From a virus (Duplodnaviria; Heunggongvirae; Uroviricota; Caudoviricetes), in the IMG/VR virus record IMGVR_UViG_2602041568_000010: 6,776 bases of DNA; one strand, given 5' to 3'. The translations under genes were made by a program, and so were the position numbers. How positions within the stretch are numbered: position 1 is the stretch's first letter; each line of letters starts with the position of its first letter. This document shows positions 2,612 through 6,776 of the stretch, piece by piece. Under the pieces are notes generated by a model that did not search any database, had not been told where the DNA came from, and saw only the letters and a list, made by a program, of their open reading frames with translations.

Positions 2612-2637
<26 letters not shown>

Positions 2638-3157
2638 TCAGCAACCCCGGTATCAGTTCATCCAGCGCGGCTGCTTTGTTCATGGCTTTGATGATATCCC
2701 GTTTCAGGAAATCAACATGTCGGTTTTCCAGTTCCGGAAAACGCCGCTGCACCGACAGGGGGATCCCGTCGAGAATACTGGCAATTTCACCTGCGATCCG
2801 CGACAGCACGAAAGTACAGAATGCGGTTTCCACCACTTCAGCGGAGTCTCTGGCATTTTTCAGCTCCTGTGCGTCGGCCTGCGCACGCGTAAGTCGATGG
2901 CGTTCGTACTCAATAGTCCCTGGCTGGAGATCTGTCTCGCTGGCCTGCCGCAGTTCTTCAACTTCCCGGCGCAGCTTTTCGTTCTCAATTTCAGCATCCC
3001 TTTCGGCATACCATCTTATAACGGCGGCAGAGTCATAAAGCACCTCATTACCCTTGCCACCGCCTCGCAGAACGGGCATTCCCTGTTCCTGCCAGTTCTG
3101 AATGGTACGGATACTCGCACCGAAAATGTCAGCCAGCTGCTTTTTGTTGACTTCCAT
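2612..3157 (-). CDS. nu1: Terminase small subunit Nu1 (181 aa)
   Basis: ORF-track protein MEVNKKQLADIFGASIRTIQNWQEQGMPVLRGGGKGNEVLYDSAAVIRWYAERDAEIENEKLRREVEELRQ... is recognisable as lambda Nu1 with a few substitutions. Start context GTGGAATGAACA-ATG matches lambda. Sits immediately beside cosB. Confidence 0.95.
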
Positions 3158-4348: not shown

Positions 4349-4369
4349 CAAAACCCCGTAAAAACGAGG
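4349..4369 (-). terminator. Rho-independent terminator candidate downstream of gnsB
   Basis: Minus-strand RNA CCUCGU-UUUU-ACGGGG (6-bp stem including one G-U pair, UUUU loop) followed by UUUUG UUAUAUUUG, about 30 nt after the gnsB stop. Confidence 0.45.
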
Positions 4370-4398
4370 TTTATGGATAAATTTTATTATTGAATACA

Positions 4399-4572
4399 TC
4401 AGATTAAATTAATCTTGACATCATAGCTTTCAAGACCCGTCATTTTTTCCCGTGCGGTAAACTGAATACTGGTAACTTCTTTCCCGGTCTTTTTCTTAAG
4501 TTCAATAATTTTTTTTGTTATATATTCAGAAATATCTGCTTCTGCTTTTGTTTTTAAGTTTTCAATATTCAT
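4399..4572 (-). CDS. gnsB: GnsB (Gns family small protein, 57 aa)
   Basis: Not in the ORF track (under 60 aa). My codon-by-codon translation of the minus strand gives (M)MNIENLKTKAEADISEYITKKIIELKKKTGKEVTSIQFTAREKMTGLESYDVKINLI-stop, recognisable as GnsA/GnsB family. SD AAGAGGA precedes tandem ATGs at 4575 and 4572; spacing favours 4572. Confidence 0.85.
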   Translation of the reverse strand: MNIENLKTKAEADISEYITKKIIELKKKTGKEVTSIQFTAREKMTGLESYDVKINLI

Positions 4573-4743
4573 CATTTCCTCTTTTAGTCTGTTATGACTT
4601 TCCAGTTACACAGTAAGTCGATTATATGGTGCAAACGTGTAAAAGATAAGATGAAACATCGCAATAATCAACATACGATAGTCTAAATTTTACACAAACA
4701 GACAAAGAGAATTTTCCTGAATTATCAATGCAATAGCATCAAA

Positions 4744-4974
4744 TCAACTCAAGAGCCTTATTGCTGCTTCCAGAATTTCTTCTGAAGTAACATGTCGATC
4801 CGCGGCTACATAAATGACTTTATGATCTCCGGTCAGAGATGGAAACCCTGCGGCCATTACAGTAAGGTGTGTTTTTTCGCCATTTGGATATTCACGCATG
4901 ATGGTGTTAACTCCAGTCATCGCTGGCACTACCACTGCTGGTTCAGAGTTAAAAAAAACTATGATTTTTTTCAT
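4744..4974 (-). CDS. Hypothetical protein, 76 aa (YmcE/YnfN-position ORF immediately upstream of gnsB)
   Basis: Inside ORF-track 4744..5016 (which begins at a TTG). I prefer the ATG at 4974: MKKIIVFFNSEPAVVVPAMTGVNTIMREYPNGEKTHLTVMAAGFPSLTGDHKVIYVAADRHVTSEEILEAAIRLLS. Composition looks like a globular protein, and a 230-nt ORF in this AT-rich stretch is unlikely by chance. Translation signals are weak. Family not recognised. Confidence 0.45.
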   Translation of the reverse strand: MKKIIVFFNSEPAVVVPAMTGVNTIMREYPNGEKTHLTVMAAGFPSLTGDHKVIYVAADRHVTSEEILEAAIRLLS

Positions 4975-5018
4975 GATGTTACCGTAGTATGTGAGTATCC
5001 ATCGAATAGACACCAAGC

Positions 5019-5039
5019 AAAAAAGCTCCCGAAGGAGCC
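5019..5039 (-). terminator. Rho-independent terminator (UUCG tetraloop hairpin plus U6)
   Basis: Minus-strand RNA GGCUCC-UUCG-GGAGC followed by UUUUUUGC: GC-rich stem, UUCG tetraloop, six U. Lies downstream of cspI and the small ORF, and upstream of the 76-aa ORF. Confidence 0.75.
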
Positions 5040-5046
5040 TTCATTT

Positions 5047-5157
5047 TCACTTTTTTAAATCCAACGACAGACGGCTGGCATTTAAGTATTGTGAAATATT
5101 ATCAAATGTAATCATCATTGATTTACAAAAGATACATTTTGCCCCGAAAGGATTCAT
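5047..5157 (-). CDS. Candidate small ORF, 36 aa (MNPFGAKCIFCKSMMITFDNISQYLNASRLSLDLKK); possibly YnfN-like, or merely cspI 3' UTR
   Basis: ATG at 5157 to TGA at 5047-5049, ending 7 nt before the strong terminator. No convincing SD. K-12 Qin has a small gene (ynfN) between cspI and gnsB, but I cannot confirm sequence identity. Confidence 0.25.
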   Translation of the reverse strand: MNPFGAKCIFCKSMMITFDNISQYLNASRLSLDLKK

Positions 5158-5245
5158 GTCAGAAACATCAAAAGATGATGTTCTATACTGGGAACCATGA
5201 CAACACGGGCATCTAAAGTGAATATGGTTTGTAATATTGTCTACC

Positions 5246-5458
5246 TCAAAGCGCCACTACATGAACAGCGGCAGGACCTTTAGGTCCGTTCTCAATACCA
5301 AATTCAACTTCCTGATTCTCAGTTAATGTTTTGAAATCGTTGCTCTGAATTGCTGAGAAATGGACAAACACATCTTTGCTGCCATCTTTCGGCGTGATGA
5401 AACCAAAACCTTTTTCAGGGTTAAACCATTTCACTAAACCAGTCATTTTGTTAGACAT
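5246..5458 (-). CDS. cspI: Cold-shock protein, CspA family (CspI-like), 70 aa
   Basis: ORF-track protein [70 protein letters not shown] carries the RNP1 (KGFGFI) and RNP2 (VFVHF) motifs of cold-shock domains. SD context AAGGTAATAATT-ATG closely resembles cspA. Confidence 0.93.
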
Positions 5459-5638
5459 AATTATTACCTTTTGAAGAAATTAGCCCTTGGGCAGAATGGT
5501 CCGAAAAAAAATATCAGAGAGAAAAACCAACAAGGAAATCTCAAGAGGTACAAATAATAAAATTATAACAATGACTGCTTCAGATAAATTTGTAACAAAC
5601 CAGAACACCATTAACGCATGATTAACCACCCATAGCAA
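5459..5638 (-). promoter_or_regulatory. cspI promoter candidate and long cspA-like 5' UTR
   Basis: Minus strand: -35 TTGCTA (5633-5638), 17-nt spacer, -10 GTTAAT (5610-5615), resembling the cspA promoter (TTGCAT / CTTAAT as I recall). Predicted leader about 145 nt, beginning GGUGUUCUGGUUUGUUACA... (cold-box-like). Confidence 0.4.

Positions 5639-5820: not shown

Positions 5821-6776
<956 letters not shown>

Follow-up and report, generated by a model that had tools for sequence, protein, structure and literature searches.

The locus raises the question of whether a 76-codon open reading frame (ORF) lying directly upstream of gnsB forms a toxin-antitoxin-like pair with it, as a first-pass annotation had suggested by comparison with ymcE-gnsA, or whether the two genes are neighbors of a different kind. 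The window (the whole 6,776-nt stretch of DNA that was analyzed) showed the arrangement described there: the ORF occupies positions 4744–4974 of the minus strand (ATG at 4974; TGA stop at 4744–4746), it lies upstream of a GnsA/B paralog, the coordinates place both genes on the same strand, 168 nt apart, and the setting is a prophage, specifically a lambdoid one of the Qin/mEp460 type.

The ORF is the intact form of a known E. coli prophage gene, ynfN. Its protein is 100% identical to RefSeq YnfN (WP_000720962.1), identical DNA in other genomes is annotated in RefSeq as ynfN (231 nt), and the phrog_3425 profile matches the protein over positions 1–76 of 76 (7.2e-54), and all of the YnfN motifs are present: an N-terminal M-K-K-[VI]-x-V-F-F-N, E-Y-P-N-G-E-K, and S-L-T-G-D-H, each made up of columns that vary little or not at all in the family alignments. 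The earlier description of a protein of unrecognized family does not hold given these matches, nor does the suggestion of a gene fragment; another alternative offered there, a YnfN relative, was essentially right, since the ORF is the intact, 76-aa version of YnfN. No model in Pfam or NCBIfam matched YnfN, and PADLOC defense models gave no match for ynfN, gnsB, ynfQ, ydfO, or ynfO. ynfN is an ordinary, already annotated gene, given as 76 aa in RefSeq and as 51 aa in K-12.

The shorter K-12 form is explained by a single nucleotide. In an alignment of 1401 nt, the window and K-12 MG1655 differ only at a homopolymer in ynfN codons 6–8 (4951–4958, minus strand), which is T8 in the window (A8 on the plus strand) and T7 in K-12. 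Because T7 in place of T8 shifts the frame, K-12 ynfN (b1551, Qin prophage) is annotated as a 51-aa protein starting at Met26, with the frame broken upstream; in the ynfN genes of other genera, Met26 is not conserved and the N-terminus is. The K-12 reference ynfN is thus a homopolymer-frameshifted allele of the same gene, with the same neighbors (cspI, ynfQ, ynfR, and gnsB), and its annotated start is a frameshift artifact, whereas the allele in the window is T8 and intact. In K-12, the one genome in which the neighbor of the T7 allele was checked, gnsB is intact and identical to that of the window. Among about 80 prophage contigs from IMG/VR, the homopolymer was T8 in 66, T7 in 12, and T9 in one. 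In complete E. coli genomes, exact matches numbered 1043 for T8 and, over an 89-nt segment with gnsB outside it, 418 for T7 (K-12 included), such that the frameshifted allele makes up ∼27% of the complete genomes with the segment (418 of about 1570); selection on ynfN within E. coli may therefore be weak.

Homologs of ynfN were found at loci in 46 species from about 20 genera, with 36–79% identity, and 43 of the 46 species loci encode a full-length protein of 74–78 aa with an ATG start, in which M1, K3, V6, F7, F8, and N9 are near-invariant in alignments. Ratios of dN/dS were about 0.14–0.16, at 0.14 over the full ORF and 0.16 within codons 1–25, and the 76-aa form is a real gene under purifying selection along its full 76 codons. 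In a set of 1.84 billion representatives, this small family accounts for 45 clusters at E ≤ 0.001, of which 28 reach E ≤ 1e-10, and the full-length members each have a single domain and a length of about 75 aa. An AlphaFold2 model (pLDDT 86.4, pTM 0.73) predicted a five-stranded sheet and a C-terminal helix, with strand 1 at residues 2–7, and the model had no structural relative among the folds searched. These features are best explained if YnfN is a small soluble protein of an orphan family restricted to Enterobacteriaceae.

Three annotated genes precede ynfN on the minus strand. The first gene of the unit, cspI (5246–5458; Pfam CSD, 1.6e-31), carries a cspA-type thermoregulator spanning its 5′UTR and coding region (5219–5604, minus strand), which matched Rfam RF01766 over model positions 1–428 of 428 (112.8 bits, with the gathering score at 78; E = 4.8e-29). 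The second, ynfQ (5047–5235), encodes a 62-aa CxxC small cold-shock protein of the YmcF-like family (Pfam PF23641, 6.9e-32); it starts at an ATT codon 10 nt past the cspI stop and has a GAGG Shine-Dalgarno. An intrinsic terminator (5019–5041, minus strand; GGCUCC-UUCG-GGAGC followed by U6) begins 7 nt past the ynfQ stop and folds at −23.3 kcal/mol (z = −2.9). A hairpin and T-run occupy the position right past the ynfQ stop in 18 species loci, with differing stem sequences, and the hairpin in the window is homologous to that after K-12 ymcF (0 of 500 shuffles reached the score). Lying across the hairpin is the third gene, ynfR (4979–5044), a 21-aa small ORF for which strong cold-shock induction of YnfR-SPA has been reported (PMC6001520); 4 nt separate its stop codon from the ynfN ATG. 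The weak translation signals that had been ascribed to ynfN were confirmed, with no AGGAGG and only ACGGTAACATC ahead of the ATG, and can be attributed to the position of this start codon 4 nt past the ynfR stop codon. In other genera, a GGAG Shine-Dalgarno precedes ynfN, and the ynfR ORF was found only in Escherichia loci; thus, ynfR-ynfN coupling cannot be a general mechanism.

Published expression data place ynfN with the csp genes. In K-12 during long-term stationary phase, log2 fold changes of cspI (2.61, 5.82, 3.76, and 2.01) and ynfN (2.01, 5.59, 3.92, and 2.16) were similar (PMC7406224), and a cspI deletion mutant is outcompeted in that phase (PMC7406224). After AZT treatment, cspI, ynfQ, and ynfN were induced 6.5-, 5.9-, and 5.8-fold, respectively, and they depended on SspA by factors of 38, 42, and 51 (PMC11228462). 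In LF82/Tritos RNA-seq, log2 fpkm ranged from 9.0 to 12.7 for cspI, 4.8 to 8.4 for ynfN (computed on a short 156-nt annotation and reflecting RNA rather than protein), and 7.6 to 12.3 for gnsB. The ynfN RNA tracked cspI RNA at an 8- to 25-fold lower level, consistent with the terminator just past ynfQ, and was about 5-fold over the prophage background. No direct detection of YnfN protein was found in the literature, and Weaver 2019 makes no mention of the genes at this locus. The gnsB RNA exceeded ynfN RNA by 2.5- to 70-fold and was uncorrelated with either cspI or ynfN, which argues that gnsB has its own promoter, located within the spacer or a short distance before it.

The gnsB assignment itself was upheld by both Pfam and the existing annotation. 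From its first ATG, gnsB (4399–4575, minus strand) encodes 58 aa and is preceded by a strong Shine-Dalgarno, AAGAGGAAA; RefSeq instead uses the second ATG (4572), and the gap to ynfN is then 171 nt. The product matches Pfam PF08178 GnsAB_toxin over positions 1–54 of 54 (3.3e-35) and the GnsA crystal structures 4XO1/4XO2 (6e-20), and the gene is followed by an intrinsic terminator (4351–4372, minus strand) with a 9-bp stem and a T-rich tail. The 168-nt spacer between ynfN and gnsB (4576–4743, minus strand) must hold or follow the gnsB promoter; it had no Rfam match. A perfect TATAAT had been pointed out in this spacer, and the hexamer is indeed present (4621–4626, minus strand), although only at chance frequency, with two copies in the window against 3.2 ± 2.0 expected. 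As the gnsB −10 element it was not preferred, having no usable −35 at 16–18 nt and being absent from the homologous Citrobacter spacers. The candidate gnsB promoter suggested by the sequence is instead a block at 4643–4671 (minus strand) composed of TTGATT (4671–4666), 17 nt, and TATCTT (4648–4643), with both hexamers and their spacing kept in the ynfN-gnsB spacers of Escherichia and Citrobacter. The first half of the block also occurs upstream of K-12 gnsA, at borderline significance (8 of 500 shuffles reached the score).

Gene order was compared across the species loci. A csp or ymcF/ynfQ gene lies upstream on the same strand as ynfN in 41 of 46, whereas gnsB lies downstream in only 17, a count on which tblastn and HMM searches agree, and the remaining 29 species have ynfN with no GnsA/B gene within 3 kb; in 13 of these 29 loci, a terminator occurs ≤110 nt past the ynfN stop. 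Three ynfN-gnsB loci (L040, L045, and L047) have no csp gene upstream, and terminators separate ynfN from gnsB in five (L009, L012, L013, L045, and L047). Adjacency in 17 of 46 loci, including three without csp, exceeds random expectation, and some functional link between the two genes may exist. The same cassette is carried by the functional phages Tritos, mEp460_ev081, and 2H10, and the YnfN protein is identical in active phages. In Qin/mEp460-type lambdoid phages and prophages, it is located between the lysis genes and cos/terminase, the position after Rz and before terminase that is typical of lambdoid phage morons such as lambda bor, and it resembles morons further in that its expression from the prophage does not depend on the lytic program (PMC9928086). 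Unlike bor-type morons, it carries no virulence or exclusion gene but cold-shock genes and an RNA thermosensor of the cspA type.

Taken together, cspI, ynfQ, ynfR, and ynfN probably form a cold-shock moron cassette in which ynfN is the distal cistron, with gnsB as a separate unit and no toxin-antitoxin module. Transcription would start at the cspI cold-shock promoter and run through the cspA-type thermosensor leader, and most transcripts would end at the UUCG-loop terminator just past ynfQ. A minority may read through when a ribosome ending ynfQ or translating ynfR covers the hairpin's 5′ arm; antitermination is a known activity of Csp proteins. The start of ynfN, which lacks a Shine-Dalgarno, would then be served in this prophage by termination-reinitiation from ynfR, and gnsB would be expressed from its own promoter in the spacer, with its own strong Shine-Dalgarno and its own terminator.

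The toxin-antitoxin reading has to be weighed against this cassette, together with a possible homology to YmcE. YmcE (Sfa; PF15939) is encoded in a paralogous chromosomal csp cassette, cspG-ymcF-ymcE-gnsA, likewise by a same-strand ORF of 76 codons flanked by one gene of the ymcF type and one gns gene, and a forced MAFFT alignment of the two proteins contains short in-frame matches (FFN and LT). It was thus conceivable that ynfN is a diverged ymcE homolog, or ymcE a decayed copy of ynfN, with both loci holding the same gene pair, but this is extremely improbable. BLASTP of YnfN against YmcE returned nothing at E ≤ 100; YnfN had no Pfam match to PF15939 YmcE_antitoxin at E ≤ 1, whereas YmcE itself scores 1.6e-56, and no NCBIfam match, the YmcE model there being NF007379. 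The proposal of a diverged YmcE relative thus failed on alignment, and the "same position" claimed for the two genes has no equivalent in the DNA, in which the ynfN coding sequence does not align to the cspG locus: against the ymcF-gnsA interval it scored no better than shuffles (16 of 500 reached its score), and in a second local alignment, with a z of about 2.5, the best shuffle outscored the real sequence. What the cspG locus does share with the ynfQ-gnsB interval of the Qin locus is the terminator hairpin (0 of 500 shuffles) and, at borderline significance, the spacer block (8 of 500), such that the hairpin is the sole significant match. Since the coding sequence alignment was not significant, ymcE as a decayed ynfN was rejected. 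The two genes also differ in their surroundings: ymcE has overlaps of 26 nt with ymcF and 11 nt with gnsA, but ynfN starts 4 nt after ynfR, which separates it from ynfQ, and ends 168 nt before gnsB; furthermore, YmcE is confined to Escherichia and Shigella, whereas YnfN occurs in many genera. The ymcE ORF in fact overlies DNA that matches the non-coding Qin terminator and, borderline, the gns-upstream spacer block.

That YnfN and GnsB might form a toxin-antitoxin-like pair in their own right, YnfN neutralizing GnsB in the service of prophage stabilization or of stress and persistence, is suggested by two small adjacent genes on one strand with the supposed antitoxin upstream, by the filing of GnsA/B as a toxin family (Pfam PF08178 and the PGAP name), by the listing of ymcE-gnsA among type II modules (PMC8484670, PMC6265476), by the increase in persisters on gnsA or gnsB overexpression (bioRxiv 10.1101/310961), and by the recurrent ynfN-gnsB adjacency, including the three loci without csp. 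Modules such as relBE and yefM-yoeB likewise consist of two small adjacent same-strand genes on a mobile element, with the downstream one labeled a toxin. However, the ynfN-gnsB pair departs from them in the properties expected of type II modules, namely a single operon, strict co-occurrence, an antitoxin fold, and intolerance of antitoxin loss. The genes are 168 nt apart, with a terminator between them in some genera, the RNA of the supposed toxin is in large excess and varies independently, and the predicted YnfN fold is not of an antitoxin type (RHH, HTH, AbrB, Phd/YefM, and similar). The 29 species in which ynfN has no GnsA/B gene nearby speak against an obligate partnership, as does the distribution in E. 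coli, with gnsA in 5415 of 5426 genomes, in none of which ynfN lies beside it, and ynfN in only about 1570–2150. Natural loss alleles of the supposed antitoxin are tolerated: the K-12 T7 allele removes residues 1–25 (strands 1–3) next to an intact gnsB, though a 51-aa C-terminal fragment could remain, and the 418 complete genomes share T7 over the 89-nt segment. Moreover, gnsA and gnsB overexpressed from ASKA plasmids act as multicopy suppressors that rescue growth instead of stopping it (bioRxiv 10.1101/2024.03.27.586906). With YnfN showing no similarity to YmcE or PF15939 either, the toxin-antitoxin interpretation is not supported, and we consider it very improbable. A milder version, in which YnfN is a non-essential modulator, made from the cold-shock operon, of GnsA/GnsB-type regulators of lipid composition, i.e., a loose and non-addictive partner with its dose set by a translation-sensitive terminator, is compatible with the recurrent ynfN-gns adjacency and the orphan fold, yet we hold it to be quite unlikely as well; were it true, a ribosome on the end of ynfQ or on ynfR would cover the hairpin and RNA polymerase would continue into ynfN. 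A final possibility is that E. coli retains ynfN only as a decaying relic, a barely expressed prophage passenger close to a pseudogene and without current function. The frequency of the T7 frameshift in both prophage contigs (12 of 80) and complete genomes (418 of about 1570), the location of ynfN behind a terminator with RNA 8- to 25-fold below that of cspI, the missing Shine-Dalgarno, and the ability of K-12 to manage without full-length YnfN would all fit such a history, but T8 remains the majority allele (1043 genomes), the protein is unchanged in active phages, purifying selection across genera includes the N-terminus, the predicted fold is confident, and ynfN RNA is still well above the prophage background, making a relic unlikely.

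YnfN most likely serves as an accessory protein under cold or stationary-phase stress and is dispensable in E. coli, and work on YnfN in K-12 concerns a truncated product without three of the five predicted strands. The "YmcE antitoxin" label applies to an Escherichia-only ORF lying over a conserved terminator and, at borderline significance, perhaps a gns-upstream block, and the case for regarding GnsA/B as toxins is weaker for it. The association of ynfN with gnsB is best explained if the two are neighbors in a modular cold-shock and membrane-fluidity cassette, csp-ymcF/ynfQ-(ynfN)-(gns), in which ynfN would belong with the csp unit and gns would be transcribed separately.

The window covers part of an E. 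coli lambdoid prophage of the Qin/mEp460 type (99.3-99.6% identity to many chromosomes). It carries the terminase large subunit gene (764-2437) and nohA, for the terminase small subunit (2612-3157), both on the minus strand, ynfO (DUF3950) and ydfO (DUF1398) on the plus strand, and, again on the minus strand, gnsB (4399-4575), a 76-codon ORF (4744-4974), the ynfR sORF (4979-5044), ynfQ (5047-5235), and cspI (5246-5458). In Rfam, the cspI leader and gene matched the cspA-type thermoregulator at full length (5219-5604, minus strand; 112.8 bits versus a gathering score of 78). The Rz-like gene rzpQ (5821-6318) and the lysozyme gene rrrQ come next in coordinate order; a 90-codon ORF with a lipoprotein-like LTSC motif (5871-6143, minus strand), nested in rzpQ in another frame, corresponds to the K-12-annotated rzoQ (Rz1-type). 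Parts of the portal/terminase region are masked by two N runs, 420-448 (29 bases) and 2456-2483 (28 bases), which give X stretches in ORF translations.

The ORF, spacer, gnsB, and TATAAT hexamer described by the first-pass annotation were each found in place, but the ORF, said there to be of unrecognised family, is ynfN. Many complete E. coli genomes contain the surrounding 951 nt at 100% identity; RefSeq labels the 231-nt gene in them "ynfN: protein YnfN" (WP_000720962.1), and the protein matched PHROG 3425 over all 76 positions (7e-54); Pfam and NCBIfam contained no model for it. The gene is already known and annotated. Residues 26-76 matched PHROG 4911, corresponding to the 51-aa K-12 form. 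From cspI to gnsB (1401 nt), the window and K-12 MG1655 differ by one base: the homopolymer at 4951-4958 is T8 in the window and T7 in K-12. Because T7 breaks the upstream reading frame, curators chose the longest remaining ATG ORF, 51 aa from Met26. The MG1655 reference ynfN (b1551, 51 aa) is the frameshifted T7 allele (about 4159-4165 of L002, the K-12 ynfN locus), in which the true start codon would yield only a 14-aa peptide, MKKIIVFLTLNQQW. Of 80 IMG/VR prophage contigs encoding an identical GnsB, 66 carried T8, 12 T7, and one T9. A 90-nt ynfN segment was present in 1570 of 5426 complete E. coli genomes, with exact matches to the T8 query in 1043 and to the K-12 T7 query in 418, many of the latter being K-12 derivatives. 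This allele spread indicates that the homopolymer is a mutational hot spot and that loss of full-length YnfN is tolerated.

Several lines of evidence identify the 76-aa form as the real gene. With one genome scanned per species, 46 ynfN loci were recovered (36 to 100% identity), essentially all from Enterobacteriaceae genera, including Escherichia, Shigella, Citrobacter, Raoultella, Klebsiella, Kluyvera, Scandinavium, Enterobacter, Phytobacter, Trabulsiella, Yokenella, Siccibacter, and Silvania; in 43 of the 46, the ORF starts with ATG and runs for 74-78 codons. The N-terminal M-K-K-[VI]-x-V-F-F-N was nearly invariant, whereas at Met26, the annotated K-12 start, other genera have Glu, Thr, Ile, or Leu. 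Median pairwise dN/dS was 0.14 for the whole ORF and 0.16 for both codons 1-25 and codons 26-76. The AlphaFold2 model, built from a 15-sequence alignment, was confident (pLDDT 86.4, pTM 0.73), with predicted strands at 2-7, 14-18, 24-28, 34-45, and 51-58 and a helix at 64-75; on this model, the K-12 product would be without strands 1-3. Searching 1.84 billion cluster representatives with a profile returned only 45 clusters at E<=0.001 (28 at E<=1e-10), and the full-length clusters were single-domain proteins of about 75 aa. Two contigs with other taxon labels, L004 (JAGZPX010000007.1, "Veillonella parvula MAG"; 100% identity to E. coli) and L031 (CACSKA010000011.1, "Chryseobacterium sp. 18061"), held enterobacterial csp-ynfQ-ynfN cassettes that look like binning or assembly contamination.

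Spacing among the four cistrons from cspI to ynfN is tight: the ynfQ ATT start lies 10 nt past the cspI stop behind a GAGG Shine-Dalgarno, the ynfR ATG 2 nt past the ynfQ stop, and the ynfN ATG 4 nt past the ynfR stop. The annotated starts of ynfQ (5233-5235) and its paralogue ymcF (2685 in L003, the K-12 cspG-ymcF-ymcE-gnsA locus) are both ATT, 10 nt past the csp stop behind GAGG/AAGG; an ATG-based ORF listing therefore gives only a shorter, 36-aa ORF for ynfQ (5047-5157). Seven nucleotides after the ynfQ stop begins a hairpin, GGCUCC-UUCG-GGAGC followed by U6 (-23.3 kcal/mol, z = -2.9). A hairpin with a T-run occupies the same place in 18 loci (Escherichia, Citrobacter, Raoultella, Klebsiella, Trabulsiella) with differing stems, which suggests that structure, not sequence, is conserved. 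The ynfR frame, read across this hairpin, is present in Escherichia only, and in other genera ynfN is preceded by a GGAG Shine-Dalgarno. YnfR-SPA is strongly cold-shock-induced (PMC6001520), so ribosomes do pass over the hairpin region.

Three published RNA-seq tables (PMC7406224, PMC11228462, PMC9928086 S4) backed this architecture. In long-term stationary-phase K-12, log2 fold changes were 2.61/5.82/3.76/2.01 for cspI and 2.01/5.59/3.92/2.16 for ynfN (PMC7406224); cspI, ynfQ, and ynfN were induced 6.5-, 5.9-, and 5.8-fold by AZT and were 38-, 42-, and 51-fold SspA-dependent (PMC11228462). Prophage Tritos of AIEC LF82 encodes an identical 76-aa protein, and across five conditions log2 fpkm was 9.0-12.7 for cspI, 4.8-8.4 for ynfN (over its 156-nt annotation), and 7.6-12.3 for gnsB (PMC9928086 S4 table). 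There, ynfN RNA tracked cspI at 8-25-fold lower abundance, in keeping with partial termination at the hairpin, whereas gnsB RNA exceeded ynfN by 2.5-70-fold (16-70-fold in DMEM) and did not track cspI (gnsB 12.2 and cspI 9.0 after 6 h in DMEM; 11.2 and 12.6 after 1 h in macrophages). Thus, gnsB must be transcribed from a promoter of its own that lies beyond most of ynfN. Product labels in Table 1/S1 Table of PMC9928086 appear shifted by one row relative to its S4 Table (LF82 1610202-1610702): to go by coordinates and length, the 174-nt gnsB is the gene entered as "LF82_0907 YnfN, 27-fold above background", and ynfN is the 156-nt LF82_3578, called "cold-shock protein".

The best conserved candidate for this promoter is TTGATT (4671-4666), 17 nt, and TATCTT (4648-4643), an arrangement (4643-4671, minus strand) common to Escherichia and Citrobacter ynfN-gnsB spacers. 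The wider block TTGAT[TA]ATTG...CTTTC...TATC[TG]T lies upstream of gnsB in both genera (spacers of loci L009-L015), and part of it occurs upstream of K-12 gnsA within the ymcE ORF (L003, about 2948-2968); it could be the gns promoter or a regulatory site. The TATAAT that the first-pass annotation had singled out is present at 4621-4626 and is a possible promoter element, but it occurs at chance frequency (two copies in the window, 3.2 expected), was not listed by the promoter scan, has no acceptable -35 16-18 nt upstream, and is not conserved in homologous Citrobacter spacers.

Over the 46 species loci, csp and/or ymcF/ynfQ lay upstream of ynfN on the same strand in 41 (ynfQ in 35-36), and a GnsA/B gene, scored by tblastn and by a family-built HMM with agreeing counts, lay within 3 kb in 17 (Escherichia, Shigella, Citrobacter, and three others). 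Of the 29 gns-less loci, 13 had a clear intrinsic terminator no more than 110 nt past the ynfN stop, so ynfN closes the unit there. Of 5426 E. coli genomes, 5415 had gnsA together with ymcE and no ynfN beside them, and ynfN-gns adjacency also occurred in three loci without csp (L040, L045, L047). Adjacency is commoner than chance, yet not obligatory either way. Six loci (L020, L022, L025, L032, L035, L044; Kluyvera, Scandinavium, Enterobacter, and some Citrobacter) have ynfN behind ymcF and resemble the chromosomal cspH-cspG locus of E. coli in their divergent cspH-like and cspG-like genes, but the cspG-ymcF gap is 650-800 nt and gns is absent. In Raoultella and Klebsiella (L018, L021, L023, L024), a conserved 70-aa ORF, MITHPEVRRWASVML..., replaces gnsB about 140-360 nt past ynfN.

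The identity and conservation of ynfN are established, and expression data back the architecture; how it works we infer. ynfN is the last, weakly expressed cistron of a cold-shock moron, cspI-ynfQ-ynfR-ynfN, and would be reached by terminator read-through. Since the terminator abuts the ynfQ stop, a ribosome terminating there, or one translating ynfR, would cover the 5′ arm of the hairpin; in Escherichia, ynfN translation would be coupled to ynfR, and gnsB would form an independent neighbouring unit. By association, our best guess is that YnfN plays an accessory part in cold or stationary-phase stress.

The first-pass annotation had instead suggested a YmcE-GnsA-like toxin-antitoxin pair, with the ORF perhaps a diverged YmcE/YnfN relative. 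Reviews and tools citing Yamaguchi 2011 and Wei 2015 do list ymcE-gnsA as a type II module (PMC8484670; PMC6265476), and one preprint reports that overexpressed gnsA and gnsB raise persister counts (bioRxiv 10.1101/310961); overexpressed gnsA and gnsB are also multicopy suppressors that rescue growth (bioRxiv 10.1101/2024.03.27.586906), and the literature basis for the label is thin. For ynfN-gnsB, each feature testable from sequence or RNA failed. YnfN has no homology to the supposed antitoxin: BLASTP against K-12 YmcE gave no alignment at E<=100, and Pfam PF15939 ("YmcE_antitoxin"), which YmcE matched at 1.6e-56, was unmatched by YnfN. The two genes are not a single operon, RNA of the "toxin" gnsB is in large excess, strict co-occurrence is absent, and the predicted YnfN fold is not antitoxin-like. 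K-12 itself has a natural ynfN frameshift beside intact gnsB, and 418 complete genomes, many of them K-12 derivatives, carry this T7 allele.

Comparison of cspG-ymcF-ymcE-gnsA with cspI-ynfQ-ynfR-ynfN-gnsB revealed DNA homology over ymcF/ynfQ and gnsA/gnsB and, between these, two common stretches: the terminator hairpin just past the ymcF/ynfQ stop (score reached by 0/500 shuffles) and, borderline, the gns-upstream spacer block TGTTGATTATTG..CTTTC (8/500). The ynfN coding sequence had no significant counterpart in the cspG locus (16/500); ynfN is thus an extra Qin segment absent from that locus. On this alignment, the ymcE ORF overlies DNA matching the Qin non-coding terminator and, less certainly, may also cover the spacer block. 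YnfR KAPSGAFL resembles YmcE residues 11-20, RLPRGAFF, because the same conserved hairpin is translated; in ynfR (4979-5044) and the N-terminal part of YmcE, the hairpin (5019-5041; L003 2848-2900) is read in the same frame (APSGAF versus LPRGAF). YmcE homologues were found in Escherichia and Shigella only, a far narrower range than that of YnfN or GnsA/B. This restriction, together with the position of ymcE over a terminator, casts doubt on YmcE as a conserved "antitoxin".
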